From: Chitinophagales bacterium
Lineage (GTDB): Bacteria > Bacteroidota > Bacteroidia > Chitinophagales > CAIOSU01
Assembly (NCBI GenBank): GCA_026003335.1
Contig: BPHB01000004.1
Span: forward strand, 2,316 to 66,315
DNA length: 64,000 nt
Direction of reading: 5' to 3'
In this document: positions 69 to 45,000 of the stretch, in pieces
Numbering within the stretch: position 1 is the stretch's first letter
How the letters are laid out: every line of letters begins with the position of its first letter
Translations under genes and position numbers: made by a program
The notes under the pieces: model-generated
Databases searched by the model: none
What the model was told of the DNA's origin: nothing
The model's input: only the letters and a program-made list of their open reading frames with translations

Positions 69-108
69 AGCCTCTTTTTTTAAAAAAAGAGGGGCTATAA
101 AGTCCCTC

Positions 109-660
109 TTAAATCAAGCCTTTAAATTCTATTAAAAGATTCACTTTCTCTTCCATCTTGGCATAGTGAAGCTCAGGATTGGCGTACCAACTCACATCCA
201 CCCCCGCTTCCAATCCATACCGGATCATCCTCATCTGCTGATAATCAAACTCCGGCTTGGCATAGACACTCACATCTAAGCCCTCTTTTAGCCCAAGCCT
301 GATCTCTTCCATCTGTTTCCAGTTAAACTCCGTCTTGGCATACACGCTTACGTCCACGCCTGCTTGTAACCCTAATCTTATCTCATTCATCTGGTAATAA
401 TCAAACTCCGGCTTGGCATACCAGCTAACATCCACTCCTCTTTTTAGCCCTTGCCTAATTTGCAGCATGTGCAAACAATCGAACTCCGGCTTGGCGTACC
501 AACTGACGTCCAATCCCTCTTCCAGTCCAAGACGAATCTCCTCCATCTGCTGATAATCAAACTCCGGCTTGGCGTACCGGCTGACGTCTAAACCTTTTTT
601 AAGTCCTATTTTAATTTCTTGCCTTTGCATCTCTTTGAAGATATCCAAATCTAATTTCAT
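109..660 (-). CDS. 26-aa tandem-repeat protein (6 repeats)
   Basis: Repeat unit EIRLGLxxGLDVSxYAKPEFxxxQM; C-terminus EFKGLI. Confidence 0.9.
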   Translation of the reverse strand: MKLDLDIFKEMQRQEIKIGLKKGLDVSRYAKPEFDYQQMEEIRLGLEEGLDVSWYAKPEFDCLHMLQIRQGLKRGVDVSWYAKPEFDYYQMNEIRLGLQAGVDVSVYAKTEFNWKQMEEIRLGLKEGLDVSVYAKPEFDYQQMRMIRYGLEAGVDVSWYANPELHYAKMEEKVNLLIEFKGLI

Positions 661-695
661 AGTTTTTTAAAAAAAGAGAGGCTAAGCCTCCCTTT

Positions 696-1244
696 TCAGT
701 AAAGATCCTGATATCCTTTTACTTCTTTTATCCACTCATATATCTCATCATTCCCCACGGGGGTGGAGTCTTGTATGCCATGATACTTTTTGTACAAATC
801 ATAAATCATGTCCTGTATAACTGATATAAAAGCTCCTATATCCCAGTTTAAGCGTAAAACCAGTGTATTGGTTAATTCTATCTTTGCTGCCTGATAATTT
901 GGGTAAAAATCATCAAATTCTAAGGCTTCTTTATGAGGACACGATCCGGTAACGCATTTCATGTATCCATCCTCATCAGGGTAGGTTTGAACTGATACAT
1001 AATCTTTTTTAAACCCTTCTGCAAGAATCTTTTCATGATCGAATTCGATCTCTATCCACGCATATTGCGCCATACAATACCGGCATGGTAATTCGCCTGT
1101 TTTTGTGTAAACGGCTTCCAGGTTATCACACATTTCTTCCAGCTGCTTTTCCAGCTCTAACTCTAAATGGTTGCTCCATGATTTGATATCATTAGCTATT
1201 TCATCCAATTTCAAAATCTCTTTGATTCTTTCTATCTTCTCCAT
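696..1244 (-). CDS. hypothetical protein
   Basis: ORF 696..1310. The start is moved to ATG 1244 (MEKIERIKE) because the longer ORF runs through the junction motif. Confidence 0.75.
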   Translation of the reverse strand: MEKIERIKEILKLDEIANDIKSWSNHLELELEKQLEEMCDNLEAVYTKTGELPCRYCMAQYAWIEIEFDHEKILAEGFKKDYVSVQTYPDEDGYMKCVTGSCPHKEALEFDDFYPNYQAAKIELTNTLVLRLNWDIGAFISVIQDMIYDLYKKYHGIQDSTPVGNDEIYEWIKEVKGYQDLY

Positions 1245-1297
1245 AATCCTTATGCCATTTTTCAAAAAAAAGAGGGGGAGTACCCCTCCCCCCTTTT

Positions 1298-1987
1298 TTA
1301 TAATAAACACAAATAATCAGTTATGTTCTGAGGGGTGTTATCATACATCCATCCCTCATTTTCAATCTCCCTTAGGACATTCTCTGATTCTATTACTTCT
1401 ACTTCTTCGTAGCAATGCACATGGATATATCCCATATAGCCACATTCAATGAAAGCGGAGATATACTCATGTGAGTAAGGGTGATATAAATCGCAGTTAT
1501 TAATAATATAAGTAGGGGTTGAACAGTAATAATCGTCGTCGCAAACCTCGACTTCCACAACCAAGCTGAATTCAAAGAATTCAAGCATATCTTTGCTTTT
1601 AAAGCTAAGACAATCAATTGCCAGTAATTTTAATTGGTTTGATTTTATTTCGTTAACGGACCAGTAACAAAGGGTCCCATCCCCAATGATAAGCTCATCC
1701 CCAGGGGTGATAAGATCATACAATTCAGTCCCCCCCATGACTTTTACTTCATTAAATGTATAATAGTTTTCAGCTACTTCTTTAGTGTAAAAGTGCATGA
1801 TTCCATCATGCACATAGTCTTTGTTGACATACAAGATGTCTTTTTGTAGGTTAATAACCCCTGTGACCGGCCGGTAAAATCTTGGTGCGTAATTATCTAT
1901 CTTTTCCGGAAGGATCAGCAAGTAATCATTATGATACTGCCCTTCTATGGTCACATCTGCTTTGTAAAAGAACAATTTCTTTTCCAT
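1298..1987 (-). CDS. hypothetical protein
   Basis: 229-aa ORF with ATG directly after a junction motif. Confidence 0.8.
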   Translation of the reverse strand: MEKKLFFYKADVTIEGQYHNDYLLILPEKIDNYAPRFYRPVTGVINLQKDILYVNKDYVHDGIMHFYTKEVAENYYTFNEVKVMGGTELYDLITPGDELIIGDGTLCYWSVNEIKSNQLKLLAIDCLSFKSKDMLEFFEFSLVVEVEVCDDDYYCSTPTYIINNCDLYHPYSHEYISAFIECGYMGYIHVHCYEEVEVIESENVLREIENEGWMYDNTPQNITDYLCLL

Positions 1988-2031
1988 AGTTTATTAAAAA
2001 AAGTGTGGGGAGGTATTCCCTCCCACACACT

Positions 2032-2316
2032 TTAATCTTCGAGGCAGTCCTCTTCGTCCTCCTCTTCCTCTCCTTCATTGGCTGCTTCAACTAACTCATC
2101 CCAACTGATTTCATCTATACAAATGAAATCGGCAATAAAGTAATATCTTGAAGTGATCTCATCACATATACTTTCAAGATATTCTTTAAATTCATAAACA
2201 CCGTCAGTGGTAAAATCAAATCCCAATTCTGTAATCCACATGCTTGCAGCCCAAGTGGCATGATTCTTCCATCCGTTGTACCCTTTCATAGTTCTTTTTG
2301 TTTTTTGGTTTGACAT
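2032..2316 (-). CDS. small acidic phage protein with YNGWxNxxTW motif
   Basis: GYNGWKNHATW motif, seen in phage early proteins; acidic tail; ATG adjacent to the junction motif. Confidence 0.75.
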   Translation of the reverse strand: MSNQKTKRTMKGYNGWKNHATWAASMWITELGFDFTTDGVYEFKEYLESICDEITSRYYFIADFICIDEISWDELVEAANEGEEEEDEEDCLED

Positions 2317-2351
2317 TTTTTAAAAAAAACAGGCAGTGGTTGCCTGTTTTT

Positions 2352-2840
2352 TTAAATGAGGCCTTCGTATTCCTCATACATCAAAGCCCAAGTAAGAGCA
2401 TCTTCAAATGTAAGCCCGCTTCTACCTGTATGTTCTTCTGCAATGTCTATCAACACTTTACATATCTCATCCAAGTAGTTCTCCTGAACTTCAATTACAC
2501 GCTTTTGTACGGTATCAATAAATGCCGATATAGATTCATCAATAGAATGCGACATAAGCTGACAATCTATTAATTCCTCTCCCCCGCATTCGAGAAGACG
2601 CTCCCTGTTTATATCACAAAAGACAGCTAAATACCCCTCAAAGTCATAATAACATTCTATTGAGGTAGCTGCCTCTACACATTTTTTACAAGGTTTTTTA
2701 CCTATCTTTTTGATTTCTTTTCTTAGTTTTTCGGCCTCGGCTATCAACCTTGGGTGGATGACATTGTCCCAATAGTTCAAGTCTGTTGCCGCGTAATAAT
2801 CGCGCAACAACTCTTTGATTCTGATCAGGGTGTTGTTCAT
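2352..2840 (-). CDS. hypothetical protein (CxxC; C-terminal EYEGLI)
   Basis: 162-aa ORF bounded by junction motifs; KPCKKC resembles VPCEKC in 6230..6739. Confidence 0.8.
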   Translation of the reverse strand: MNNTLIRIKELLRDYYAATDLNYWDNVIHPRLIAEAEKLRKEIKKIGKKPCKKCVEAATSIECYYDFEGYLAVFCDINRERLLECGGEELIDCQLMSHSIDESISAFIDTVQKRVIEVQENYLDEICKVLIDIAEEHTGRSGLTFEDALTWALMYEEYEGLI

Positions 2841-2877
2841 AGTTTTTTTAAAAAAAACAGGGAATACATGTCCCTGT

Positions 2878-3195
2878 CTACAGTAATCCTTTAAATTCTA
2901 TCAATAGCTTAAGTATATCTTTCATTTTTTTTGCGCTAAACTCCGGCTTGGCATACACACTTACGTCTACGCCCTCTTCTAACCCATACCGTATTTGTGC
3001 CATCTGTTTCCAGTTAAACTCAGGCTTGGCATACCAACTCACATCCAACCCTTCTTTTAGTCCAAACCTGATCTCTTCCATCTGTTCCCACCTAAACTCC
3101 GGCTTAGCGTACCAGCTCACGTCTAATCCTTCTTCCAGTCCAAACTGGATTTGTTGCAACTGATTTTCACCGAAAAGTTCTTTGTTTATCTCCAT
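2878..3195 (-). CDS. 26-aa tandem-repeat protein (3 repeats)
   Basis: 105 aa, same repeat unit. Confidence 0.9.
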   Translation of the reverse strand: MEINKELFGENQLQQIQFGLEEGLDVSWYAKPEFRWEQMEEIRFGLKEGLDVSWYAKPEFNWKQMAQIRYGLEEGVDVSVYAKPEFSAKKMKDILKLLIEFKGLL

Positions 3196-3234
3196 AGCTT
3201 TTTTAAAAAAAACAGAGGGGATGTGCCCTCTGCT

Positions 3235-3786
3235 TTAAATCAATCCTTTAAGTTCTATCAATAGCTTAAGTATATCTTTCATTTTTTTTGCGCTAAACTC
3301 CGGCTTGGCATACCAGCTCACGTCTACGCCCTCTTCTAACCCAATCCGGATTTGTTCCATCTGTCCCCAGTCAAACTCAGGCTTGGCATAGACACTTACG
3401 TCTACGCCCTCTTCCAATCCATACCGGATCTTCCTCATCTGCTGATAATCAAACTCCGGATTGGCATACCAGCTCACATCTAATCCTTCTTCAAGCCCAA
3501 ATCTTATTTGCTCCATCTGATGATTGTCAAACTCCGGCTTGGCATACCAACTCACATCCAACCCTTTTTCAAGACCAAGTCTTATTTCCCTCATCTGTCC
3601 CCAGCCAAACTCCGGATTGGCATAGACACTCACGTCCACGCCTTTCCTAAGACCAAACCTGATCTCTCGCATCTGTTCCCAATTGAAATCAGGCTTGGCA
3701 TACCAGCTTACGTCTAATCCTTCTCCCAGTCCAAGCTGGATTTGTAGTAATTGCTCTCTACCGAAAAGTTTTTCGTTTATCTCCAT
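3235..3786 (-). CDS. 26-aa tandem-repeat protein (6 repeats)
   Basis: 183 aa = 105 + 3x26. Confidence 0.9.
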   Translation of the reverse strand: MEINEKLFGREQLLQIQLGLGEGLDVSWYAKPDFNWEQMREIRFGLRKGVDVSVYANPEFGWGQMREIRLGLEKGLDVSWYAKPEFDNHQMEQIRFGLEEGLDVSWYANPEFDYQQMRKIRYGLEEGVDVSVYAKPEFDWGQMEQIRIGLEEGVDVSWYAKPEFSAKKMKDILKLLIELKGLI

Positions 3787-3823
3787 AGCTTTTTTTAAAA
3801 AAACAGGGGATACATGTCCCTGT

Positions 3824-4609
3824 TTATAGTAATCCTTTAAATTCCATTAATGCTTCTCTTTTCTTTTTCATTTCAAGTGAGCCAAACTCCGGCTTAGCAT
3901 AGACACTCACATCCAACCCCTCTTCCAGTCCAAACCTGATTTGTTCCATCTGTCCCCAGTCAAACTCAGGCTTGGCATAGACACTCACATCTAATCCTTC
4001 TTCAAGCCCAAATCTTATTTGCTCCATCTGATGATTGTCAAACTCCGGCTTGGCGTACCAACTCACATCCAACCCCTCTTTTAGCCCAAACCTGATTTGT
4101 TCCATCTGTCCCCAGTCAAACTCAGGCTTGGCATAGACACTCACATCTAATCCTTCTTCAAGTCCAAATCTTATTTGCTCCATCTGATAATTGTTAAACT
4201 CCGGCTTGGCGTACCAACTCACATCCAACCCTGCCTTCAACCCAAGCCTGAGTTGTACCATCTGCCATTCATTGAATTCCGGCTTGGCGTACCAACTCAC
4301 ATCCACGCCCTCTTTCAAACCATACCTGATCTCTCGCATCTGCTTTGGCATGAATTCCGGCTTGGCATACACACTTACGTCTACGCCCTCTTCTAACCCA
4401 ATCCGGATTTGTTCCATCATCCCCCAAGCAAATTCCGGCTTGGCATAAATGCTTACGTCCAATCCTGCTTCCAATCCAAGACGAATCTCCTTCATCTTTT
4501 CCCAAATAAACTTAGGATCGGTATACCAACTCACATCCAACCCTTTTTCAAGGCCAAGACGTATCTGCTCTAATTGCCGTTCGTTAAAAATGTCTTTGTT
4601 TATCTCCAT
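3824..4609 (-). CDS. 26-aa tandem-repeat protein (9 repeats)
   Basis: 261 aa = 105 + 6x26. Confidence 0.9.
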   Translation of the reverse strand: MEINKDIFNERQLEQIRLGLEKGLDVSWYTDPKFIWEKMKEIRLGLEAGLDVSIYAKPEFAWGMMEQIRIGLEEGVDVSVYAKPEFMPKQMREIRYGLKEGVDVSWYAKPEFNEWQMVQLRLGLKAGLDVSWYAKPEFNNYQMEQIRFGLEEGLDVSVYAKPEFDWGQMEQIRFGLKEGLDVSWYAKPEFDNHQMEQIRFGLEEGLDVSVYAKPEFDWGQMEQIRFGLEEGLDVSVYAKPEFGSLEMKKKREALMEFKGLL

Positions 4610-4649
4610 AGCTTTTTTTTAAAAAAACAGAGGGGATGTGCCCTCTGCT

Positions 4650-5591
4650 TTAAAGCAATCCTTTAAGTTCTATCAATAGCTTAAGTATATCTTCCATCTT
4701 TTTTGCGCTAAACTCCGGCTTGGCATACACACTTACGTCTACGCCCTCTTCTAACCCAATCCGGATTTGTTCCATCTGTCCCCAATTGAAATCAGGCTTA
4801 GCATAGACACTCACATCCACGCCCGCTTCCAATCCAAACCGGATTTCTCTCATACTGCCCCAACTAAACTCTTTTTTGGCATACCAAGTAATGTCTAACC
4901 CCTTTTCCAGCCCATAACGTATCTCCCGCATTTGTTCCCAGCTAAACTCCGGTTTGAAATATATACTTACATCCAATCCTTTTTCCAACCCCAGTCGGAC
5001 TTCTTCCATCACCTTCCAAAAATACACTTTGTTAGCATACACACTAACATCTACCCTTGCTTTAAGACCATGCCGTATTTGAAACATCTGAGTGCTGTTA
5101 AACTCCGGCTTGGCATACCGGCTCACGTCCAAGCTTTCTTCCAGCCCAAGTCTTATTTCCTTCATTTGCCATTCATCGAATTCCGGCTTGGCATAAATGC
5201 TCACATCCAGGTCTTTTCCAAGACCAAGTCTTATTTCCATCATCTGTCCCCAGTTAAACTCCGGCTTGGCATACACACTTACGTCTACGCCCTCTTCTAA
5301 CCCAATCCGGATTTGCTCCATCTGTCCCCAATTGAAATCAGGCTTGGCATACCAACTCACATCCAACCCTTTCTCAAAACCAAGTCTTATTTCCCTCATC
5401 TGTCCCCAGCCAAACTCCGGCTTAGCATAGACACTCACGTCCAATCCCTCTTCCAGTCCAAGACGGATCTCCTCCATCTGCTGATAATCAAACTCCGGCT
5501 TGGCATACCAGCTTACGTCCAATCCTTCTTCCAGTCCAAACTGGATTTGTTGCAACTGATTTTCACCGAAAAGTTCTTTGTTTATCTCCAT
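4650..5591 (-). CDS. 26-aa tandem-repeat protein (11 repeats)
   Basis: Start at ATG 5591 (MEINKELFGENQ, identical to the 2878..3195 N-terminus); 313 aa = 105 + 8x26. Confidence 0.9.
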   Translation of the reverse strand: MEINKELFGENQLQQIQFGLEEGLDVSWYAKPEFDYQQMEEIRLGLEEGLDVSVYAKPEFGWGQMREIRLGFEKGLDVSWYAKPDFNWGQMEQIRIGLEEGVDVSVYAKPEFNWGQMMEIRLGLGKDLDVSIYAKPEFDEWQMKEIRLGLEESLDVSRYAKPEFNSTQMFQIRHGLKARVDVSVYANKVYFWKVMEEVRLGLEKGLDVSIYFKPEFSWEQMREIRYGLEKGLDITWYAKKEFSWGSMREIRFGLEAGVDVSVYAKPDFNWGQMEQIRIGLEEGVDVSVYAKPEFSAKKMEDILKLLIELKGLL

Positions 5592-5627
5592 AGCTTTCAC
5601 AGAAAAAAGAGAGACAAGACAGTCTCT

Positions 5628-6188
5628 CTAACCTAATAGGTCAAAATACAGAGATAACTCTTCTGCATAATTGAGTACCACCTGCACAAACCCCTCCTGC
5701 CCGGTCAACTCTTTGTATGCACGAGTCATCACCGGAATGATTTGTGACTTAAAATCACTTGCCGCAAAAACAAGCCTATTCCCAAACTTATTTTTGATAT
5801 CGGCAAGATATCTTTCATTTTTAAGTGATTTCAACGAAGGGTCATTGTAATAGGGCAAAGACCCCTCGATACACCCTACGCAGAAATCATGCTTGATGCA
5901 TGATTTCATCAATGAAAGCTTGCTTTTAATAAGCGATACATCCAGCTGCCCGTTATCAGTAATGATACTGATATGAAAGGCGTCTAATATTGCCTCAGGG
6001 CAACCGCTGCGTAGATCATCTTCATCTACTCTTATACTGTGTTTTTTCTTTACCTCCTCTATGACCTTTGAAAAGGCCTTATCAAGGAGTACCTTGTGCG
6101 CTTCCCCTCTACGTTCTACATCGCTCGCGAGGAGATAGTATTTGTAGAGGGTGTAAATTTCTTTTTTTAGAATGAAGTTATCTTTCAT
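5628..6188 (-). CDS. hypothetical protein
   Basis: 186-aa ORF bounded by junction motifs. Confidence 0.8.
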   Translation of the reverse strand: MKDNFILKKEIYTLYKYYLLASDVERRGEAHKVLLDKAFSKVIEEVKKKHSIRVDEDDLRSGCPEAILDAFHISIITDNGQLDVSLIKSKLSLMKSCIKHDFCVGCIEGSLPYYNDPSLKSLKNERYLADIKNKFGNRLVFAASDFKSQIIPVMTRAYKELTGQEGFVQVVLNYAEELSLYFDLLG

Positions 6189-6229
6189 AATCTATTTCTT
6201 AAAAAAACAGGGGCTTGACATAACCCCGG

Positions 6230-6739
6230 CTATATCAAGCCCCTGTATTCCCAAATGGAATAAGCCCATTCGAGAATTTCGTCTTTTTTCCAAGGGCCCT
6301 TCTTCTTTAAGCCCTTATAATACCCTAATAAGAGGTCGTAAGCCTCTTTCTTATATTCATCCATGATAGGGTCTACCATTTCATAGGCGTCACTACGAAC
6401 ACAACGCATAATCTGATCTACGTCTTTATCATGGATGTAGTTATAAGGGCTTCTATTATGACTGCAATTCCCCTTGGCACAGTTATCCACACGCTCCCAC
6501 CCGAAAGAGTAAAGCGTATAATGGAAGCCTATGCGTACGGGGTCCCATTCTGCGGTGATCTTCACCGCAGATAAAATACACTTCTCACAAGGAACTTTGC
6601 CTCTTTTAAAGGCAATGTCCCTTACTTTCTCATGCACATCGCGGAAAAGACCTCTTATATTCATGGTCTCCGCATAACATGCCGCCGCATAGTATTTAAT
6701 ATATGCGGCAATAACTTCTTTATAAATGTCTAATTCCAT
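6230..6739 (-). CDS. hypothetical protein (CxxC; C-terminal EYRGLI)
   Basis: 169-aa ORF; KYYAAA...VPCEKC layout resembles DYYAAT...KPCKKC in 2352..2840. Confidence 0.8.
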   Translation of the reverse strand: MELDIYKEVIAAYIKYYAAACYAETMNIRGLFRDVHEKVRDIAFKRGKVPCEKCILSAVKITAEWDPVRIGFHYTLYSFGWERVDNCAKGNCSHNRSPYNYIHDKDVDQIMRCVRSDAYEMVDPIMDEYKKEAYDLLLGYYKGLKKKGPWKKDEILEWAYSIWEYRGLI

Positions 6740-6777
6740 AGTTTTTTTAAAAAAAAGGGGTTACCCCCCTTTGATGG

Positions 6778-8010
6778 TCATTCTACATGAACAACCATCT
6801 TCGCTTTCTTTACCCCCGGCTTTGCACCCGTATACATCACAATCCCTACCGTCTTGCCGGGAAATTCTAATACATCATCTGAGTCGAGATAGCCATCAGT
6901 CAATACAATCACGACGTCATGCTTCTTGGCTATCTGCTTCAGATGGAGGCCGAGCTGAGTACCGGACCCCCTGGGAATAGAGGCTTTACGGATGTCTTTT
7001 ATTTTCTCGTACCCCACAATCTCGGTGTCTACATAGTACATATGTGTAGTGACACCTTTGATCAGCACCTGGCCAAGCAGGCGTTTGATCTCATCCTCAC
7101 TCATAGAGAGAGAGACATCCAGCAGCACAGCCATCTCACGGGAGATACGCTGCACACCAGGCAGCTCGCGCATATTGCGCCGGTTGGGACGCCCCCATGT
7201 GTCTATGGAGTCACGGCTGCCTAAGGCATGCTTTAGCAATGCCTTCACCCGATTGGCCCATCTGCCGGGCTTAATCGATGTGATAGACAGCGTGTCCCAT
7301 ACACCAGAGCCGGTCCCGGCAGCCTGAGCTACCTGACTTTTCATCCTTTCGGCTACCGCCGCGGCTTCGGCTGCCGTCGCGTCATCCATAGGCATATGAG
7401 TGTCCGTAGACCCCTCAGTTCCTTGAAGACGCTTAAGCATACCCTTGGCAGTCTCTCTTCCTCCATTTGAAGAAGAAGAGCCACCACGGGAGGCCGAACC
7501 TTTGTTGTCCTCCTCTTCATTCCCCTCACCATCGCCATCCCCTTCCTGCTGCATAGAGTCCTGCTCCTTACGAAGAAACTCATACAGTTCTTCAAAGAGC
7601 CACTCGCCTTCATAGTCAGAAGGCATACGGCATCCTCCTTCAATGAATTGAAGGTCATTAGGGTAGCGCTCAAGTAAGGAGTCATTGATGATGCAGTCCT
7701 GTGCAATATTCGACAGGAACGCATCTCTGTGTCCTACTCTGAGCAAATGAATATTGCTCAAATGCATCGCTTCATGCAAAAGCAAGAAACGAAGCTGAGC
7801 ATCATTTAACTCAGAGGATCTTGGTCCTATATGGAGGACAAATCCCTTCCTCCGTTTGTCGTAACTCACCGCACCATAAGGGACACTCTCATCGTACCTC
7901 TTATCACAAAGGGACAATAAGAGCCCCAGCGCACGGTAGTCTTCGCTCCGCGGTGACGACACTATCCCAAGAATAGTATCGTACACGCGGTTTAAAATGT
8001 CTAATTCCAT
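6778..8010 (-). CDS. metallopeptidase-like (HExxH) + VWA domain protein (DUF2201-like)
   Basis: LLHEAMH, NIAQDCIIND, MIDAS-like LLDVSLS, and LTDG. Start at ATG 8010 (MELDIL) after the junction motif. Confidence 0.8.
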   Translation of the reverse strand: MELDILNRVYDTILGIVSSPRSEDYRALGLLLSLCDKRYDESVPYGAVSYDKRRKGFVLHIGPRSSELNDAQLRFLLLHEAMHLSNIHLLRVGHRDAFLSNIAQDCIINDSLLERYPNDLQFIEGGCRMPSDYEGEWLFEELYEFLRKEQDSMQQEGDGDGEGNEEEDNKGSASRGGSSSSNGGRETAKGMLKRLQGTEGSTDTHMPMDDATAAEAAAVAERMKSQVAQAAGTGSGVWDTLSITSIKPGRWANRVKALLKHALGSRDSIDTWGRPNRRNMRELPGVQRISREMAVLLDVSLSMSEDEIKRLLGQVLIKGVTTHMYYVDTEIVGYEKIKDIRKASIPRGSGTQLGLHLKQIAKKHDVVIVLTDGYLDSDDVLEFPGKTVGIVMYTGAKPGVKKAKMVVHVE

Positions 8011-8066
8011 ACTTTTTTCAAAAAAAAGGCATAGGGACATAGTCCCCGCCTTTCAAACCTGCCATT

Positions 8067-9116
8067 TTAAATGGAGGAGATAATTTTCTTCAGTGTGTTT
8101 CTAAACCGATTATCCCCACCATTAAATTCACGGCTTGCCTGCCCCAAGACCTCCTTAGCCGGTTGTGCCATATTCTTGGCCTTGGTTAAGATGCCGCCGA
8201 CCAAGTCAATAGGCATCTTCTCGCAGGCACGGACGAGAAGTATGGCCTCTTTCTTGGTCACCTTCTCTCTACCCTCCATCCAATCCATGACACCTGTCGC
8301 CACATTAGCGGCGTTGGTGTCATTAATCATATCGATTAGCTTGGGGTCTTTCAGTATATTGACCCAAGTAATCTTACTCATCTCTTCAACCCAGGTGCCA
8401 AATGCAACGGCAGCCCGGGTACCAATTATACCCTTCAATTCCTCAATGCCCAACTCTATATGTTGAGACATTGAGATTACGAATTCCCAGCTTCTGGGGC
8501 TGGGAGCCCCAAATTCATCCCTCATTTCGGGCGCATTGAAATATTTGCGCTCCGACTTCAAAAACGTAACGACCATATTATCGCCGTACTTTTTAATTAT
8601 CCACTGAGACCATGCATCAAAGTCAAGGTCCCAGCGAATTGTCCAGAGACGTTCCCTCAAAGCCGAAGGCATCTCCTCCACAACAGACTCTGTGCCATCC
8701 TCTTCACCCAAGTTGCCGGTTGCGGCAATCTTGGCTTTTCCTGATATTTGGCGACCCTGCCACTCACGCTCATTAAAGAGCTGGTAGAAGGTCACCATCG
8801 TTTTCGGATGAGCCGCATTGAGCTCATCGAAAATGAACAGCGTGGGTTCTTTGCACTCCAGCATCTCCGTTATGATGGGAGAAGCCATGTATTCAAATGA
8901 CTTCTCCCCTAATTTCGGGATGCCTACAAAGTCCTCAGGTGGAGCCTGTACCGGCACCACACGGACGTTCCATCCCTTTGCGTGAGCTATCTCACGAAGG
9001 ATGGCACTTTTACCTGTACCCGGTGCTCCTACAAGGAAAGGCACCGGAACATAGCAATTGCCTTGTACTTCAAGCAAGGCGCTGATCTGGTTTCTTAAGT
9101 TTGTTTTCATGCTCAT
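8067..9116 (-). CDS. MoxR-like AAA+ ATPase
   Basis: Walker A GAPGTGKS, Walker B FIFDELN, ATGN, ALRER and PSPRSW. Adjacent to a VWA gene. Start at ATG 9116 after the junction motif. Confidence 0.85.
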   Translation of the reverse strand: MSMKTNLRNQISALLEVQGNCYVPVPFLVGAPGTGKSAILREIAHAKGWNVRVVPVQAPPEDFVGIPKLGEKSFEYMASPIITEMLECKEPTLFIFDELNAAHPKTMVTFYQLFNEREWQGRQISGKAKIAATGNLGEEDGTESVVEEMPSALRERLWTIRWDLDFDAWSQWIIKKYGDNMVVTFLKSERKYFNAPEMRDEFGAPSPRSWEFVISMSQHIELGIEELKGIIGTRAAVAFGTWVEEMSKITWVNILKDPKLIDMINDTNAANVATGVMDWMEGREKVTKKEAILLVRACEKMPIDLVGGILTKAKNMAQPAKEVLGQASREFNGGDNRFRNTLKKIISSI

Positions 9117-9157
9117 ATTTGTTTTTTCAAAAAAAACCCGCCATAAGGCGGGGCGCA

Positions 9158-9310
9158 TCACCCTCTTGCCATTTGGATGATGCGGGTCATTATATGGATC
9201 GGGGCATATACGATGGCAAACCCGATCCACCCCATGACTATATATCGCCATGCCATACAGGCAATGGCGATAATTAATATAATTAATATAGATAAAATCA
9301 TCTTTCTCAT
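9158..9310 (-). CDS. 50-aa hydrophobic membrane peptide (not in the ORF track)
   Basis: Read by hand: MRKMILSILIILIIAIACMAWRYIVMGWIGFAIVYAPIHIMTRIIQMARG*. It fills the space exactly between two junction motifs. Confidence 0.7.
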   Translation of the reverse strand: MRKMILSILIILIIAIACMAWRYIVMGWIGFAIVYAPIHIMTRIIQMARG

Positions 9311-9587
9311 AGTTTATCTAAAAAAAGTTGCCTATGCAACTATCTTGCCCCTTACATAAGTACCGGTCAATCTAATCTATATATTTATCTCATCATCGCG
9401 GACCGGCAAGAATATTTTGGGCTCCCACAAAAAAAGGCTATCAATCACGATAGCCGTGCCGGTATTCACTGCTTGATTATACGGCGTGCGTGCGCCCATG
9501 TTGCCATGAACGTCCCGGCTCACGCCTCTTTACCCGCCAGCCGCAATGCAATGTCAAGCTCATCACAATGCGACCGAGCAACGTGCT

Positions 9588-9887
9588 TTACCGGGCTACC
9601 ACGTTCACCTGATAGGTGACAGGTGAGCCGGCGATTTCACGCACGCGCTCAACGGGGAGGTCTTTCCCTCTGTCCTCGGGCGTCAATGCCAAGGGCACCT
9701 CAGTGACCCGTTCGGCAAGTGCCGCGAGGTGGAGAGGCAACACCCCGATGACGTGACGACCGCGTACATCGTCAGCACTTGCGTGCGACAGTACGGGCGT
9801 GTCAGGGGTAATCAGCCCAATCTCCAAGAGGTAGTCAACCAGACCCTGATGGCGGGTGACGACGATAGTGTCAGTCATCCCATCCAT
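9588..9887 (-). CDS. csx16: Csx16-like protein (putative cyclic oligoadenylate ring nuclease)
   Basis: VVTRHQGLVDYL...DVRGRHVIGVLPLHLAA...PEDRGKDL matches the recalled Csx16 pattern (TRHxGA...VIGxLPxxLAA...RGxEL). Confidence 0.7.
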   Translation of the reverse strand: MDGMTDTIVVTRHQGLVDYLLEIGLITPDTPVLSHASADDVRGRHVIGVLPLHLAALAERVTEVPLALTPEDRGKDLPVERVREIAGSPVTYQVNVVAR

Positions 9888-10133
9888 TTTATCTAAGGTC
9901 CTAACTACCGGTGCGTTGAAATAGGAGACGCACCCCTCCCACCGAAATCATCTTTTTAAAAAAATATCTCTAATTCATTTTCGTTGTCCCACCAATAGTT
10001 GGCTATGCAACTACCCGGTGACAGCGATGCCCCCTTGCATGCTCTGTGGTTCTCCACGCCCACCATCACCACCGCTTGTCACCCCTGTCCATCACCACGC
10101 CGGTGGTTATGGATAGGTAGGCGGGGAAAAAAA

Positions 10134-10547
10134 GCGCCGGTGACAGGGGAGTATCGCGAATCACCCTGTCCCGGCGACCGGCGTGTGCACCCGCCGGCAC
10201 CAGGTCCTTGCCTACCTGGCGTTTTTTTACATCCACGTCCTTCCCGGGTACAGCAGTGGGCAAGGTCTCAACGGTTGAACCGTCACTGCTACTGCCGGGT
10301 GCAGCCATCCCGTACACATGCGTGCAGGGATGGTACCCCCATGAGTGCTCAGACTTACGCGGTGGCCAGCCGACCAATGCTTCTTGCGGCGAAGACATTG
10401 GCTCCTTCTCACCGGGTTTTACGTAACCGGTCCCATGGGCGACCGGTTACAACCATCGTTATGCCGATGGTACAGCTTCCCCATCCCGGGCGAAGCAACC
10501 CCATGCCCCATGTCGCTGTACGTGCGTCAGCCGACAGGGGCAGCCTG
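10134..10547 (-). ncRNA. putative structured ncRNA, copy B
   Basis: No credible ORF; bounded by junction motifs; shares conserved blocks and covarying stems with 10667..10985. Strand inferred from the junction orientation. Confidence 0.55.
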
Positions 10548-10561
10548 TTTTTTAAAAAAAA

Positions 10562-10653
10562 GGCCGGCGCCTATGCCGGGGGCCTGGGCGACAAGGAAAG
10601 GAGTCGCTTGCGCCCACCGGCACACATCCTTCTTTTAATGGTAGTTGTGCCGG
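10562..10653 (-). ncRNA. putative ~90-nt small RNA between two junction motifs
   Basis: Stems ccggcaca/tgtgccgg and tgggcg/cgccca plus a terminal hairpin; no ORF. Confidence 0.35.
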
Positions 10654-10666
10654 TTTTTTAAAAAAA

Positions 10667-10985
10667 GCGGGGATGCCGCTCGCCCAACGGCAGAGCCCCG
10701 CACACCAGTCCATCCTCTCCCCAATGCGATGGTAGGACGAAATCCCATCCATGTGGGGTACATGGGCACCTCCCGGGCGGTGCCGCACTCCCATGAGCGC
10801 TCGGTTTTACGGGTGGCCAGCCCAACCTATGCAATGCATAGGGAACCTTCTTCCACGGTTTTACGCAGCTCATCCCATGGGCGACTCGCTGCAACCCGTT
10901 CCTACGGACGGGGTCTACCTTGCGGGCATTTGGCAGACACGTGCGTGCCCCTGCCAAACCCGGCCTGCCCCAATAAGGGGCATTC
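10667..10985 (-). ncRNA. putative structured ncRNA, copy A
   Basis: Homologous to copy B with compensatory stem changes; bounded by junction motifs. Confidence 0.55.
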
Positions 10986-11022
10986 TTTTTTGAAAAAAAA
11001 CCGGGCATAGCCCGGGCCTGGG

Positions 11023-11331
11023 TCAGTCCTTGTTGGACTTGACCCAGTCTATGATTTTCTCGCCTATGCGCTCCCAGACGCAGGTGGCATAGGCGTCAAG
11101 GTAGAGTTCCCAAGCTTCCTTGGGAGCTCCATTTAACCAACCCGGGACTTCAAGTCCCGGCAATTCAAACACCCCCTTGTCGAAGGGGGTGGGGGTTGCA
11201 TATATAGATTTCCCGTTTGTATACATGGACGGGGAATCTATATTGACCCACCGAACGAGGGTCATAAACCCTCGTTTGGGGTCTCTATCGAAATCTTCGA
11301 TAGAGACCCCAACGGCGTTTATATACATCAT
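11023..11331 (-). CDS. hypothetical protein, first gene of the leftward array
   Basis: ATG 11331 (MMYINAVG) lies directly after a junction motif. Confidence 0.7.
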   Translation of the reverse strand: MMYINAVGVSIEDFDRDPKRGFMTLVRWVNIDSPSMYTNGKSIYATPTPFDKGVFELPGLEVPGWLNGAPKEAWELYLDAYATCVWERIGEKIIDWVKSNKD

Positions 11332-11565
11332 ATTTTTTTTCAAAAAAAACCCCCGTGCATAGGGGTTTTTGAAAAAAAACCGGGCGTAGCCCGGTGGTGC
11401 GAGGTGTGGGTCAGAAGTCTATTCGAGACTTCTGACCTCACACCTCTTAGAGGTGCGAACTCTCACCTCAAAGTTACTGCTGAGCTGCGAAGCTACCTGC
11501 TGACGCAAGTAGCTGTGCCGCTGCGCTCACGCCGTCACGGACGGCGGCGTGAGCGCGGGGTCTCT

Positions 11566-11742
11566 CCGAAGTGGGGACGTCCGTAGTGGACGCCCCCGTT
11601 TCGGGCGCCCCCGAAGTGGGGACGTCCGTAGTGGACGCCCCCGTTTCGGGCGCCCCCGAATAGTCGGGGGCACCCTTCGGGTGCCCCCGAATAGTCGGGG
11701 GCCCCCGTTTCGGGTGCCCCCGAAGTGGGGCACCCGTAGTGG
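11566..11742. repeat. GC-rich palindromic tandem array (about 15-bp period; exact 45-bp duplication)
   Basis: 11566-11610 is identical to 11611-11655 (ccgaagtggggacgt ccgtagtggacgccc ccgtttcgggcgccc), followed by ccgaatagtcggggg x2 and variants. Confidence 0.9.
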
Positions 11743-11830
11743 ATTACGTTTCCGTTTCGTACTCATACTGCTTTTAGGGGGGGGTTTTGTAACAGTCCCT
11801 TGAAGCGCTGCGTATAAAAAATAAAAAAAT

Positions 11831-11860
11831 AAAAAAGGGAGGGGTATTGGATCCCCTCCC
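11831..11860 (-). terminator. intrinsic terminator downstream of 11884..12396
   Basis: gggagggg/cccctccc stem followed by a T-tract on the - strand. Confidence 0.7.
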
Positions 11861-11883
11861 GGCGACACGCGATGGTGACTGTT

Positions 11884-12396
11884 TTATGATGAGAGGCGTG
11901 CTTCTGCGATCACGTATTCATCGACCGTGTTGGTAAGGGTGATGGCTGGTTTTTGGTATTCTTCAAGCAGGGTATTGAGGAGGAAGTCAGGGACGTTCTT
12001 TTTGCAGGCGTAGTGGGCGATGCCGTACAGTTTGTTGAGGAGGTCGTAGGGTGGAGCTTCGTAGTCGCCGTATTCGTCTGTTGACTGCCGGATGACAGAC
12101 AGCAGCTTATTTAGTGCGGCATTGAATGCCCGTGCGTTATATCCTTTTTTCAGTACGATACGGATGAAGGTAATGATGGAAGTGCGTGCCTGTGATTTCA
12201 TGACGTCTTTGATGTCTTCTTTCATCCCGTCAATGACCTTGCTTATTGCTATGGCATCCTCTATGTTATGGTCTTTTATTTCGGGCACGTAGAAGTTAAT
12301 ATGATCAAACAGTTTCGGACGTTTAGCCCCTGTCTTGGCGGCTATGTAGTCGTTATACAGCCCGAACATAAGATATGGCGTCCTTGCATTGATCAT
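11884..12396 (-). CDS. hypothetical protein
   Basis: 170-aa ORF with an A-rich upstream region and a terminator downstream. Confidence 0.75.
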   Translation of the reverse strand: MINARTPYLMFGLYNDYIAAKTGAKRPKLFDHINFYVPEIKDHNIEDAIAISKVIDGMKEDIKDVMKSQARTSIITFIRIVLKKGYNARAFNAALNKLLSVIRQSTDEYGDYEAPPYDLLNKLYGIAHYACKKNVPDFLLNTLLEEYQKPAITLTNTVDEYVIAEARLSS

Positions 12397-14442: not shown

Positions 14443-14458
14443 TAAGCTTCATTGCAGG

Positions 14459-14492
14459 CGGGGGTGTAGTGATGCTGCACCCCTGTTTTTTT
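14459..14492 (+). terminator. intrinsic terminator
   Basis: ggggtgtag/ctgcacccc stem followed by T7. Confidence 0.75.
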
Positions 14493-14562
14493 ATCTGTTA
14501 AGACTTGTAATTTTGGTAAATTTACTGTATATTTATAAAAGTAAAACTAAAATTGCAATAAT

Positions 14563-17586: not shown

Positions 17587-19014
17587 ATGAGAATAGCCAA
17601 TCAGGTAATGGACCTTAACGGGGATAAGACCTTCACCAAGTCGGCGCTTAGCCGCTTCCTGAAAGAGTCTACTCCGTTACAGAACAAAACATTCCGTTTG
17701 TTCCCTCAGTTCTCACTTCAGTATCTCTTACAGTCGATGGGGCGTATCCATGAAATCAAATATGACGGTACCCCTTCATTGACTACCAACAACTCTTATC
17801 TTGAGTGGGAACTTGAAACGAATCATTACGACTTAATCCCCATTACCGGTGACTTTACCGGTAATGAGACTAATGTCGGGGCTAACGTACAGCCTTTCAC
17901 CATCTGCTTTGCCCGCAAGTATTATTATCCTTTTGACCGTATCCGTCTTGAAAACGGCCAGATTTTAAGTGTGCTTGAGCCTGAGCCCGTACAAGTAGCC
18001 GCAAACAAATGGCGCTATACGGTTCGTCTTCAGACTAATGATCCTAACGAAGTAGTGGACGCACGCTATCTGGTTCCCGGTCGTATGACCAGCTTCATGT
18101 ATTCGGACTTCCCTGAATTGTCCGTTCGCGGTTATATGCGTATGAGCGGCAAAAAAGAAAGACACCGTGAATACTTGAAAGTAGAGCGTGTGTCTTTCAG
18201 CATTTCAGGGCATGCTGCAAGCACTTACTATGTGGTTGAAGACGAAAACTCAAAAGGCAAACAATTCTATTTCCTGAACAAAGCGGAGAAAGAAGCGCTT
18301 GAGGAGCTGGCGTACAAGAAAGAGATGTATCTGATCTACGGTAAGTCAAGCGTGGATGAGACAGGCAAGTGTTATCAACAGGATGCACGCGGCTTTGACA
18401 TCATATCCGGTAATGGTATCATCAACCAGATTGACCCCTCTTGCAAGGTGAACTACACCAAGTTGACCAAGCGCCTGTTGCAGGATATCATCACTGAGAT
18501 GATATTAAAGTCCGGGCGTGACGCGCAGGATGGTGTTGAGATCATATTGATGACAGGCATCCACGGCTATAATCTGTTCCAGCGTCTGATGGAAGACAGC
18601 ATGAAGCCGGGCACGGTGGTATATGAAAAACGCAACGGCGACAAGATTACGCTTGGCGGCAACTTCACCGAGTATATTTTCGGCAAAGGGCGTGTGATCC
18701 TTGCCCATAACTCGGTATTTGATGCTCCAAGCCTTGCTTCCGATGTGGACGAGAACGGTCATCGCCTGGAGTCGTACCGTATGCTCTTTATTGACAACTC
18801 CAAGTATGACGGGGAATACAATATTGCTACCTTTACCCGTAAAGGCCGTGCGTTGGTATATGGCGAGCTGTTGGGTCTTGGTGGCCGTGACGGTACCACC
18901 TCCGGTAAGATAGCGACCAGCGTGGACGGCAGTTCGTACCACTGGCTGAGTGAGATCGGAGTACGTATGCTGAACCCCTATTCTTCGTATATGCTTGAAA
19001 AAGTGATTGTTTGA
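17587..19014 (+). CDS. major capsid protein (crAss-like)
   Basis: 475 aa. LEWEL, FARKYY, WRYTVRL, FPELSVRG, SISGHA, ISGNGIINQI, MTGIHGYNLF, HNSVFD, LESYRM and ATSVDG match the recalled crAss-like capsid pattern. Confidence 0.85.
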   Translation: MRIANQVMDLNGDKTFTKSALSRFLKESTPLQNKTFRLFPQFSLQYLLQSMGRIHEIKYDGTPSLTTNNSYLEWELETNHYDLIPITGDFTGNETNVGANVQPFTICFARKYYYPFDRIRLENGQILSVLEPEPVQVAANKWRYTVRLQTNDPNEVVDARYLVPGRMTSFMYSDFPELSVRGYMRMSGKKERHREYLKVERVSFSISGHAASTYYVVEDENSKGKQFYFLNKAEKEALEELAYKKEMYLIYGKSSVDETGKCYQQDARGFDIISGNGIINQIDPSCKVNYTKLTKRLLQDIITEMILKSGRDAQDGVEIILMTGIHGYNLFQRLMEDSMKPGTVVYEKRNGDKITLGGNFTEYIFGKGRVILAHNSVFDAPSLASDVDENGHRLESYRMLFIDNSKYDGEYNIATFTRKGRALVYGELLGLGGRDGTTSGKIATSVDGSSYHWLSEIGVRMLNPYSSYMLEKVIV

Positions 19015-42079: not shown

Positions 42080-45000
42080 ATGGCTTGCTTGGACAAAGAC
42101 ACTTTGTTTTCACTTGTATTTGACCTTACCGACATAGTAGAAGACGCTAAAAGCAAAGTAGCTGCCGCCATCAAACAGGCAGTGAAGTCTGATAAAGAAG
42201 ATGTATTGAATAAAGCCATTGAGGAGGTGATTTCAACATCGCCTGTCCAATACCGTCCAGGTAAGATCAATGAATCTGATGGTGCTTCACCTGTCCTGAT
42301 TAAACTGGCGGATATGAATGCCGCCGGCAGCGGGCATTTTTCTTTTACCTTGGATGATTTTTTTGAAGCGGTAAAGAAAGCGTCAAGTAAGGAGCATGTG
42401 CGTGCTATCAACTACGCTATCGAAAAGTTCGGCGGGAAAGGGGGGTTGGTCTCCTTTGTAAATGGCTTGGCGGACATAGGTAATGGCTATTATATTAAGA
42501 TAGTTGACGGCCGGGAGTATACTTCCCCTTTATTCCCCCCAAACTTCTTCTATAACATAGAGAAGGAAGGACGTATGCGTAACCTTCTGGCAATAGGTAC
42601 ATACAAGAATGGTGATTTTGAGCCTATCGCCAGCTTAGGGTTTACCCGCCGTTCCGTCAAGTTTGGCAAGCCGGATGATCCGGGTTTATTCTACATCAGG
42701 TTTGACCCGCGTCGCTTTGCACAGCCTGATATCGGCACTTATGTAGATAAAGAAAACTATAAGAAAGGGAAGCGTAGACATGATATAACGATATCGAAGC
42801 TGAGGGAAAACCTTGGCGACGGTGTTTCCATGAGTGATGTAATGATCTATCACAAAGACTCCTTTGCCGGGGATGACCTGAAACGGCTTTATCCTTTCCT
42901 AAAGGACGGGACGCCTTTCGTGGTTATAGGGTATGAAGGCGGTGGGCGTGATGCCGGTACTAACCGTGACCTGTTCATAACATTAATGAACAGGCCGGAT
43001 AATTATAAGGAGCTGATGAGAGAGTATAAGCTCAGTGGTATCACTGACATCCTTCCTTATGTAAGCCTGTTACGTGTCAGCGCTTACGTTGACTTATATG
43101 ATGAGAACGGGGCTCTGTCTGATGATTTCTTAGAAGCATACCGTATTGCTTTCTCAAACTTGATTGGCTATTACTCTGATAAGAAAGGGCGTCCTACCCC
43201 CCTTGAGATCTCATTCGTTGACAAGAGTAAAAAAATCATCGAAGACAAAGCTATATTTAAAGACCCGCACAGGTACAAGATCGTAGATGCCACTGCATTA
43301 CAGTATATCAACAGAAGTAACATATTCAGGAAAGAACGGATACAGGACAATGCTTTATATGTGCTGACACATTATATAAGACAAGGGCTGGAGAAACTGC
43401 ATAAAGCCAAGAATGAGGACTTGTCGCCTGAGCTGCTCCGGCTGAAAAGGGAACTTGACACTGGAGGTTGGCTGGGATATGTGAATAAGCTATTGTCTAC
43501 ATATGACATCCTCCGTATCAATGGTAACAGGGATATACGTATAAACCACTACCCTATCGTATACATGGCGGCGCTGATGTCCAGAAACTATAACGAATTT
43601 TTCGGGGGGATTGATTCGGTCCCGGAAGAAAAAGAACGCATTTCAGTTCGCCGGTCGGTACAAGAGGTAACACCTGCTCCTAACAAACAGACAATAGAAG
43701 TACCGGCTGAGGATAAGCGTAAGTTCTTGTTAAACATAATTTATGATAACCCGGGAGATCTAAAGTCGGGTATGCGGCTAATCCCGGCGGCTACCTTCAT
43801 GGAAGATTTTGTTACTACCCGTGAGTCCGGGATAGGGATACCTATGATTTCGTCTTCTAATCCAATACATGCAAAAGCAGAGAAGAAAGTAGAGAGCGAC
43901 AAGGCGGCCGGTGTGGAGGTCGTCACGGCCGCCGACTTGGATAAAGAAGTCGATGACTCCGATACCGTCACGTCGGTTCAGGAGATGGATGACTTCTTGG
44001 ATCCTTTCGCCGGTGAGTCGGATGTATTTATAGACGAAGGAGAAACGCCACCTGCACAGAAGCCAAATTCAGGCTGGTTTAATAATACTATAAGCAGTGA
44101 TGATGGCATGTCATTGCGTCGTGTGGACCTGAATGACGGGATATCCTATGAACATGATGTAGAATATGTCAGCGGTATCATCAATGACTTGTTTGATGGC
44201 AAAGTAGAAGTGTCCTTTGCCGATTCGCTCTTTTATCGCGGGTCGGCATTGCATGGCCTTGCTACCAAAGCGTCGATAGTACTGCGTAAAGAACATGATA
44301 AGGCATCGCGTAGGGTGGCTGTCCATGAAGCCATACACCAGTTGAAATACTTCCTTTCTCCGGATCGTTATGAAGCCCTCTTGGCTGAGACTGCCGACGA
44401 TGCATTACGCCTCAAAGGGGATGATATCAGCAAGGCTACCAAAAAAGAGAAAGAAGAGTACCTTGCCAGGTGGGTAGAAGAATATGTAGATAAATTCTTG
44501 GATGATATCATATTAGGTAATTACTATAAGATAAGAAGAAGGCTGCCGTCTGCTATCAAGAGGGTGCTTGATATCCTTGTTAACCTGTATTTTAGAGCGC
44601 TCAAAGCACTGGGTGTTCTGGATAGCAATGCCCCCATCAATACTTTGTTCACACTCTTTTCAGGGGAGCTGCAGGATACCGAAGTGAAGCCTGTCAGCGA
44701 ATCTTTCGATACACGCATGGATGACAGCCCCGTGTATAAGGTAATGAATGCCATGTACGATGCGACGCGTTCGGTACTCAAAGGGGCATATGCGGCAACT
44801 AACGACATGGCTAAGCGCTTGTCTAAGGAAGCTAAGTCTTTATACGATGACAAGCAAGCCAACACATTGCTGTTTGAGCTGTTATATGCAAGTAAGACTG
44901 AGGTCGTACAGAACGTATTGAATAAGCTCATCAACGCCCATGGTAAGTTCAATTACCCGCCGGCTGATATAAATAATACTATAGCCCTCTTGAATTATTA

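Follow-up and report, generated by a model that had tools for sequence, protein, structure and literature searches.

The 64,000-nucleotide stretch analysed here (the window; bases 2316–66315 of the 86,145-bp contig C4, BPHB01000004.1, in a Chitinophagales assembly of 3.9 Mb and 24 contigs) belongs, judged from its sequence, to a divergent crAss-like phage, and its minus-strand block between positions 71 and 11394 is divided into units by a short junction in which a GC hairpin runs directly into a T-run and then an A-run. We propose, tentatively and with a little less than even confidence, that this junction is a stop-start signal read by the phage virion RNA polymerase, giving one-gene RNAs with short leaders. 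Nearly every early gene or small RNA is boxed by such junctions, each a hairpin and T7–9 fused to an A-run. Under this proposal, the injected virion polymerase would release one RNA at the U-run and begin the following one at the purine directly past the T-run, either because it opens the AT-only T/A run or because it remains bound to the DNA once the first RNA has been released. Messages would receive leaders of ~10 nucleotides (nt), the host RNA polymerase would be shut out of the array, and the common T/A tract would double as a crossover point for gene gain, loss and duplication. The block is presumably early, a label taken from its layout as in phage phi14:2. A repeat gene lies at both ends of C4, so the block continues beyond the first base of the window and takes in the far end of the contig.

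A hairpin, T-run and A-run junction recurs along the minus-strand block

The first-pass annotation of this DNA had described about 23 minus-strand copies of a hairpin-T7/8-A-run-ATG motif, and our census bears this out. The region 71–11394 contains exactly 23 runs of at least six T, of which 19 carry the whole motif, defined as a GC hairpin ending at a T7–8 run with at least five A within the next 8 nt. The other four are partial: those at 10133 and 9435 lack the A-run, 9964 lacks the hairpin, and 5608 has T6 and three A. Fifteen of the 19 full junctions lead into a gene, with the ATG 5–13 nt past the T-run in 14 cases and 19 nt in one, and four (11379, 11000, 10666 and 10561) lead into non-coding units or the next hairpin. 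The motif does, then, also bound non-coding units, and the back-to-back pair at 11333–11394 with no gene between its members is real. The distance from stop codon to T-run is 19–29 nt, with one case of 39 nt; the entire junction measures 30–55 bp, within which T-run and A-run alone are conserved in sequence.

A strict scan of the block found 17 hairpins followed by at least six T, 15 of them with an A-run, where 200 dinucleotide shuffles gave means of 0.19 and 0.015 (maxima 2 and 1). The 51-kb structural part of the window (12800–64000) contains two terminators per strand and none with an A-run, in agreement with the earlier remark that the motif is missing from the structural operon. The early block has 23 AT-only runs of at least 14 letters, of which junctions make up about half; the late block has 8. 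Carried over the whole contig, the search adds eight further junctions on C4 beyond the window (1417, 795, 85787, 85108, 84540, 83965, 82976 and 78961), the A-run being worn in three; carried to relatives, it finds no array in five reference Crassvirales genomes. The motif had been placed at every early unit, which holds for most of them but not for gene 9588–9887 or for several distal early-block genes (C4 76557–83489), where there is no such junction. Gene 9588–9887, lying within the early block without a full junction ahead of it, has a strong Pfam match to Cas_VVA1548 (CRISPR-associated).

The upstream side has the anatomy of an intrinsic terminator

A hairpin followed by a U-tract is an intrinsic terminator. 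In the 19 full copies and at 9435, out of the 23 T-runs, a GC stem directly abuts U7–9, which supports the terminator anatomy recognised in the first pass. The stems have diverged in sequence with pairing kept, and the loops of the 28 junctions are 3–9 nt long with no shared sequence. When 27 distinct stems were scored in a strand-neutral way, G-U oppositions on the mRNA strand numbered 10, A-C oppositions 3 and other mismatches 10 (one-sided p 0.046, some of the 13 oppositions stemming from forced ungapped stems), an excess that leans weakly towards a hairpin acting at the RNA level.

The junctions resemble ordinary intrinsic terminators in the GC stem directly before U7–9 and in its position 19–29 nt past the stop codon. 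Ordinary terminators of the host and of the phage late operon differ in lacking the A-run and in rarely having a start codon behind them; among 662 host terminator-like sites, four have a nearby ATG with an in-frame stop upstream.

The A-run is neither part of an ordinary terminator nor the Bacteroidota translation leader

At least five A within 7 nt of the T-run are found at 23 of 28 early terminators and at only 23 of the 662 host terminator-like sites. Judged from these counts, the A-run is not part of an ordinary terminator here. The first-pass annotation had taken it for a Bacteroidota ribosome leader, and this identification fails. In this phylum the translation-initiation region carries A at −3, −6 and −11 to −15 (PMC7366714). 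The late genes of the phage follow this pattern, with A at 98 of 155 positions (63%) between −15 and −11 and a peak of 87% A at −13, whereas junction genes have A at 23 of 115 (20%) and carry T at −11 to −17. Their A-run lies instead at −10 to −4 (120 of 161 positions, compared with 87 of 217 in late genes), and it also fronts the four non-coding units. Because the A-run belongs neither to the terminator nor to a leader and is kept before four non-coding units, the simplest reading suggests a new RNA 5′ end at the T-to-purine step. A purine directly follows the T-run in 25 of 28 junctions versus 51 of 78 host sites, and the 3′ stem arm is rich in pyrimidines, with 4.3 of 6 positions in 26 distinct stems compared with 3.0 of 6 in 78 host stems.

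The junctions lack a host primary-sigma promoter and the phage encodes a candidate virion polymerase

The first-pass annotation had argued that the junctions leave no room for a normal promoter. This argument is insufficient alone, because the promoters of PeSL (promoter-early stem-loop) cassettes overlap their stem-loop (PMC2839356), and motif tests are needed. The host uses the Bacteroidota box TAnnTTTG (motif as given in PMC7366714), with a peak of 124 matches 20–39 nt upstream of 2265 open reading frames (ORFs) and ~15 per bin far away. Within 120 nt upstream, the box occurs at one of 23 junction-led genes, where it sits upstream of a terminator, and at 4 of 31 late genes. Sigma70-like sites are no more frequent than expected by chance (21, versus 18.9 ± 4.5 in shuffles), with none placed to start in the A-run, and alignment of 28 junctions on the T-run reveals no conserved column upstream of the stems (<0.45 bit from −60 to −19). 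By these tests the junctions carry no promoter for the host primary sigma factor.

A virion RNA polymerase had been placed in the 6155-amino-acid (aa) ORF at 42080–60547, an assignment that is supported at motif level. The ORF contains the loop RIP..VVG..GEDADGD, which fits the pattern RIP..VVG..GxDxDGD; three database proteins match this stretch, and two of them (P0007 and P0008) also match phi14:2 gp66 in its catalytic loop, so that the two loops can be aligned through these intermediates. By this DxDxD-loop motif the ORF is a candidate virion RNA polymerase of the crAss two-barrel type. In phi14:2, gp66 transcribes the early genes and is active on single-stranded or denatured DNA (bioRxiv 2020.03.07.982082).

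Identity switches and strain differences point to cassette exchange at the T/A tract

The possibility that the junctions are cassette-exchange sites, also raised in the first pass, gains support from paralogous units between which likeness changes abruptly, exactly at the T/A tract. Over the 45 nt that begin at the ATG, junctions 5608 and 3212 match at 100%, and their upstream sides at 29%; junction 2857 is 89–93% identical to 3803 and C4:85787 upstream and 27–29% downstream. The unrelated genes 6778–8010 and 6230–6739 share their first 16 nt exactly.

Strain variation was also compared. The sequencing run that best matches C4 is a hot-spring metagenome, which may be the source, and strains in three further runs provide long pieces ~91–98% identical to C4. 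Strain joints were taken from contigs only, at a likeness of 82%, for 15 of 54 joints, of which 11 inside repeat genes were excluded as uninterpretable. Of the four in unique sequence, two fall at a T-tract, with weak support, and two (8975–9106 and 9579–9667) do not lie at junctions. The joint at 10966–11336, in run X3, removes gene 11023–11331 with its break in the T/A tract, one side being just 29 nt at 82% likeness and flagged as weak. The joint at 10041–10127, seen in X2, X3 and X6 (three of four runs), is a replacement that ends at the T-run of the 10133 terminator. One X6 contig needs 218 letters to get from 11016 to 11772, where C4 has 755, and has both non-coding units merged, and small length changes in X3 at 75, 662, 1269 and 2315 lie inside T/A runs (12 of 158 rows). 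From these comparisons, the T/A tract is likely a crossover point for gene gain, loss and duplication.

The cassettes carry three gene families, a C-terminal tag and structured non-coding units

Seventeen of the 24 genes that end at junctions fall into three families, A, B and C, with no cross-family match below E 0.01. Family A consists of 24-residue repeats, family B of 160–190-aa proteins with a CxxC-type motif, and family C has two members. A fold model of family B (predicted local distance difference test, pLDDT, 86) found no match at E ≤ 0.001 in the PDB or BFVD, and only unnamed or doubtful clusters in the ESM Atlas. A tie between the junction and the repeat-protein family was considered and rejected: 244-kb low-GC phages (L005–L007) carry long arrays of this same family of 24-residue repeat proteins, for which there is no Pfam model, with overlapping stop and start codons and without the junction.

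Fourteen of the 24 cassette-end genes, from three unrelated families, end in the C-terminal pattern [YF]xx[LI][LIY]-stop, which also closes 5 of 2895 host ORFs but none of 31 late genes; the pattern was picked after the data were seen, the 14 include C4:83450, which has no terminator behind it, and a separate 28-aa ORF matches too. The tagged cassettes are located at 109–6739 in the window and at C4:816–2383 and 83450–86089. Across codons −4 to −2 of the tag, third positions hold 0.07–0.25 bit and second positions 0.9–1.7 bit, and the constraint therefore acts on the peptide. The tag Tyr is one of five invariant columns in family B (10 sequences at 18–27% identity, one at 95%). Identity with the host transfer-messenger RNA tag (GEVNYAMAA) was rejected, a Tyr at −5 being all that they have in common. 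The AAA_5 ATPase in the same array, which we take to be MoxR-like, forms a pair with the DUF2201 gene that may be a candidate reader of the tag. We consider it possible, although doubtful, that the two observations belong to one scheme, in which the two-barrel virion polymerase would use a code of shape and homopolymer (hairpin and T8 to release, A-run to restart) in an array unreadable by the host, and a shared C-terminal address tag would be read by a phage partner such as the AAA+/vWA pair.

The non-coding units 10127–10547 and 10702–10985 are paralogous and structured, have common core motifs and each stand behind a junction. Rfam gave no match at gathering score in the window; the 28 weak matches in 9300–12000 were all below gathering score, and none was a ribozyme. 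A likeness to twister-sister ribozymes found no support.

Weighing the stop-start signal against its alternatives

Several points weigh against a stop-start signal read by the virion polymerase. We infer both the stopping at hairpin-U and the starting in the A-run by an enzyme of crAss type. The 6155-aa ORF gave no direct match to gp66, to the PDB (first 5000 aa) or to named phages (tblastn), and its single-sequence fold model reached a pLDDT of 36. Five reference Crassvirales genomes, including phi14:2, are without such an array, so that a signal of this form is not common to the whole family. The junctions share ancestry by duplication, so that p-values and other statistics are overstated; the G-U excess and the X3 joint are both weak, the two joints away from junctions fit poorly, and intergenic DNA tolerates insertions and deletions anyway. 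Finally, 20 of 23 genes have the base of the hairpin 13–22 nt upstream of their ATG, which also fits a ribosome landing pad on a continuous RNA.

This last spacing is what the best-surviving alternative, in our view an unlikely one, would explain. One long transcript would enter from upstream, the hairpins would form a lock that stops ordinary host RNA polymerase, and the U/A run would serve as the landing pad. Transcription would begin in the palindrome zone at 11396–11760 or at its one TAnnTTTG (11469–11476, minus strand), and the enzyme would be either a virion polymerase insensitive to intrinsic terminators or a host polymerase under antitermination. Two tandem terminators do have a host-type −7 box and long hairpins immediately in front of them, and the early genes of phi14:2 are closely packed on one strand and transcribed resistant to rifampicin (bioRxiv 2020.03.07.982082). 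However, a single TAnnTTTG is what chance would give (the box occurs 31 times on this strand of the 86-kb contig), and read-through leaves unexplained the A-run before four non-coding units, the need for a copy of the lock after each gene and the U that replaces the A kept by late genes at −11 to −15.

Less probable again is a long precursor that a host or phage endonuclease would cleave in the U/A run, where it is single-stranded; the hairpin would protect the upstream piece, and one RNA would result per gene. RNase E-type enzymes cleave AU-rich RNA, and such processing would fit an RNA-level hairpin, short leaders and an A-run that also precedes non-coding units. Yet the strict T7–9 right after the stem is a terminator signature that cutting does not need, a polymerase would still have to pass up to 28 terminators, and no early nuclease was seen among the proteins scanned.

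We regard as improbable a strict PeSL arrangement, with a host promoter of another type than those scanned for (an alternative sigma factor) lying across the end of the gene and the hairpin, and with an array that is largely the footprint of duplication. The overlap of PeSL promoters with stem-loops (PMC2839356) and the 17 of 24 junction-ending genes in paralogous families speak for it, against the want of any conserved column upstream of the stem, the presence of the motif beside unrelated genes and RNAs, and hairpins that have diverged while keeping their pairing. Least probable of all is a promoter of N4 type, with a hairpin formed by the template strand of the DNA, whose A-run would be a ruler to +1: the geometry is that of N4 promoters, which use four As as ruler (PMC4496689), and the upstream-most template-strand hairpin, CCGGGC-GTA-GCCCGG, is confirmed at 11380–11394 (a 7-bp C-GTA-G hairpin at 11385), but a GNA loop occurs at this one junction of 28, the near-copy at 11000 has another loop, one low-depth X2 sister-strain contig has a 5-nt loop there, the G-U bias favours the RNA strand, and the N4 enzyme is T7-like rather than two-barrel.

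Phage identity and neighbouring features

The assignment of C4 to the crAss-like phages rests on Crassvirales markers, namely Crass_capsid (Pfam, 6e-44), two ring proteins (Ring_1 and Ring_2) and the muzzle (MUZ), and its terminase is 25–27% identical to Crassvirales terminases. The capsid gene was found in none of 60 related host genomes. Viral-contig scans by ATPase, capsid, junction pattern, capsid alignment and RNA pattern yielded no relative with an early region; the single metagenome locus, L004 (capsid 40% identity), stops short of it. C4 also encodes a DnaB helicase and a DUF6371/zinc-ribbon protein, with no DNA polymerase among the subset of ORFs scanned. A second crAss-like phage appears to be binned in the assembly, as indicated by part of a giant protein on the near-duplicate contigs C14 and C18, which is 27% identical to the virion-polymerase candidate and has the same catalytic loop. 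Elsewhere in the assembly, C21:1405–3027 is a 98% copy of window 13701–15325, flanked on each side by a piece of a type I restriction-modification methylase-like ORF; it is either an insertion or an assembly chimera. The non-coding gap ahead of the capsid operon contains a 27-nt AT-only repeat at 15703–15729.

The palindrome zone that precedes the array has a DNA fold z of −14 to −17 and includes a 12-bp C-GAA-G hairpin at 11679. The GC-skew minimum lies nearby, at 11176, and the zone is a candidate origin, genome end or entry promoter.

Table 1. Features of the junction array and its surroundings, in window coordinates.
Position	Strand	Feature	Source
69..108	-	Junction ahead of 28-aa ORF crossing the window edge	
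661..692	-	Junction ahead of family-A gene 109–660	
1245..1293	-	Junction ahead of family-B gene 696–1244	
1988..2030	-	Junction ahead of family-C gene 1298–1987	
2317..2346	-	Junction ahead of gene 2032–2316 (DUF7249)	
2841..2876	-	Junction ahead of family-B gene 2352–2840	
3196..3232	-	Junction ahead of family-A gene 2878–3195	
3787..3822	-	Junction ahead of family-A gene 3235–3786	
4610..4647	-	Junction ahead of family-A gene 3824–4609	
5592..5628	-	Partial junction (T6, 3 A) ahead of family-A gene 4650–5591	
6189..6245	-	Junction ahead of family-B gene 5628–6188	
6740..6772	-	Junction ahead of family-B gene 6230–6739	
6778..8010	-	DUF2201_N putative metallopeptidase / vWA-type partner gene	
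8011..8050	-	Junction ahead of DUF2201 gene	
8067..9116	-	AAA_5 ATPase gene	Pfam
9117..9152	-	Junction ahead of AAA+ ATPase gene	
9311..9340	-	Junction with weak hairpin, ahead of 50-aa gene 9158–9310	
9429..9455	-	Partial copy, hairpin and T7, A-run absent	
9953..9964	-	Partial copy, T7-A5, hairpin absent	
10127..10547	-	GC-rich non-coding unit 2, fold z −4.8; ends in long stem and T7 at 10127–10133	
10548..10584	-	Junction 5, into non-coding unit 2	
10654..10701	-	Junction 4, into short non-coding unit	
10702..10985	-	GC-rich non-coding unit 1, paralog of unit 2, no Rfam match	
10986..11015	-	Junction 3, into non-coding unit 1	
11023..11331	-	102-aa orphan gene; skipped in X3 contig (break in T/A tract), no room in X6 bridging contig	
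11333..11365	-	Junction 2, directly behind junction 1; leads to gene 11023–11331	
11366..11394	-	Junction 1: hairpin, T8, C, A5; no gene after; near-copy of junction at 11000	
11396..11760	.	Zone of long GC-rich palindromes preceding array, near GC-skew switch	
17587..19014	+	crAss-type major capsid protein, phage marker	Pfam
42080..60547	+	6155-aa virion RNA polymerase candidate; catalytic-loop motif at aa 3440–3446 (~52397–52417)	

Comparison with known systems

The array stands apart from other Crassvirales in its density. The densest 12 kb of phi14:2, crAss001, ProJPt-Bp1, cr118_1 and crAss002 (phi14:2 and crAss001 truncated to 100 kb) contain 0–2 terminators versus 21 here, and 1–8 versus 23 under relaxed limits; the eight of cr118_1 are mostly weak T5 sites, most without an ORF behind. 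The literal junction pattern was found in none of 10 Bacteroidota-type phage records. Single terminators near an ATG do exist in the reference genomes, and what is unusual here is the density together with the A-run. In the literature searched, which took in neither subscription papers nor preprint supplements and in which the sources compared below were available in part, we found no description of such an array or of an early promoter in crAss-like phages, and the words ‘promoter’ and ‘terminator’ are absent from the 2023 review PMC10136315.

Similar in layout is phi14:2 (bioRxiv 2020.03.07.982082), likewise crAss-like, with a giant virion protein having the same loop pattern, an early strand opposite the structural operon and long non-coding RNAs heading the early block. 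It differs in having at most two terminators per 12 kb, compared with 21 here, and its early transcripts showed no common upstream motif. At the head of its early strand, at ~97770–97820 (L010 47770–47820), there is a hairpin-T9-G followed by a second T8-G. This is the one study to have mapped early 5′ ends in a crAss-like phage; a stop-start code of the kind proposed here, if true, would explain why no early promoter motif was seen in phi14:2, and the junction is a candidate for the start signal of the RNA polymerase that these phages inject.

Early promoters of N4 (PMC4496689, PMC6027278) share with the junction a hairpin, followed by a coding-strand T-run and the predicted start, pairing that outweighs stem sequence, and an injected polymerase. 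N4 has three promoters, whose 3-nt loop is conserved and which have four As, and its enzyme is T7-like, whereas we see 28 sites, variable loops, T7–9 (A7–9 on the template, before the predicted +1) and a two-barrel candidate. The Thermus phage P23-45 (bioRxiv 2022.12.01.518664) is thermophilic and combines a two-barrel virion polymerase with 14 AT-rich starts and 7 repeated terminators in the first-injected region, and it indicates that such an enzyme can serve many AT-rich starts and repeated terminators. Its promoter and terminator are separate conserved motifs; here one element of variable sequence would do both. Were this so, a terminator would double as the start signal for a phage enzyme, and early genes could be added and shuffled as self-contained units. 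Pairing, T-run and A-run are all that is kept among the 28 natural variants of this minimal element, which offer exact templates and exact predicted start sites.

The junction also resembles the PeSL cassettes of T4-type phages (RB49/phi1, PST and nt-1; PMC2839356, PMC4122927). Both place a stop codon, a terminator stem-loop and the next start between orphan early genes, and in both gene gain and loss break at the element. PeSLs are ~100 bp long, with a sigma70 −35/−10 promoter and a Shine-Dalgarno site, whereas the junction, at 30–55 bp, has neither of these, nor any leader equivalent to the latter, in a phage with its own predicted virion polymerase. Because the sigma promoter and Shine-Dalgarno site are missing, the junction, as judged from its sequence, works like a PeSL cassette but is not one. 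Even if the stop-start proposal is wrong, the array would still be an unusually clean instance of PeSL-like cassette evolution outside the T4 group.

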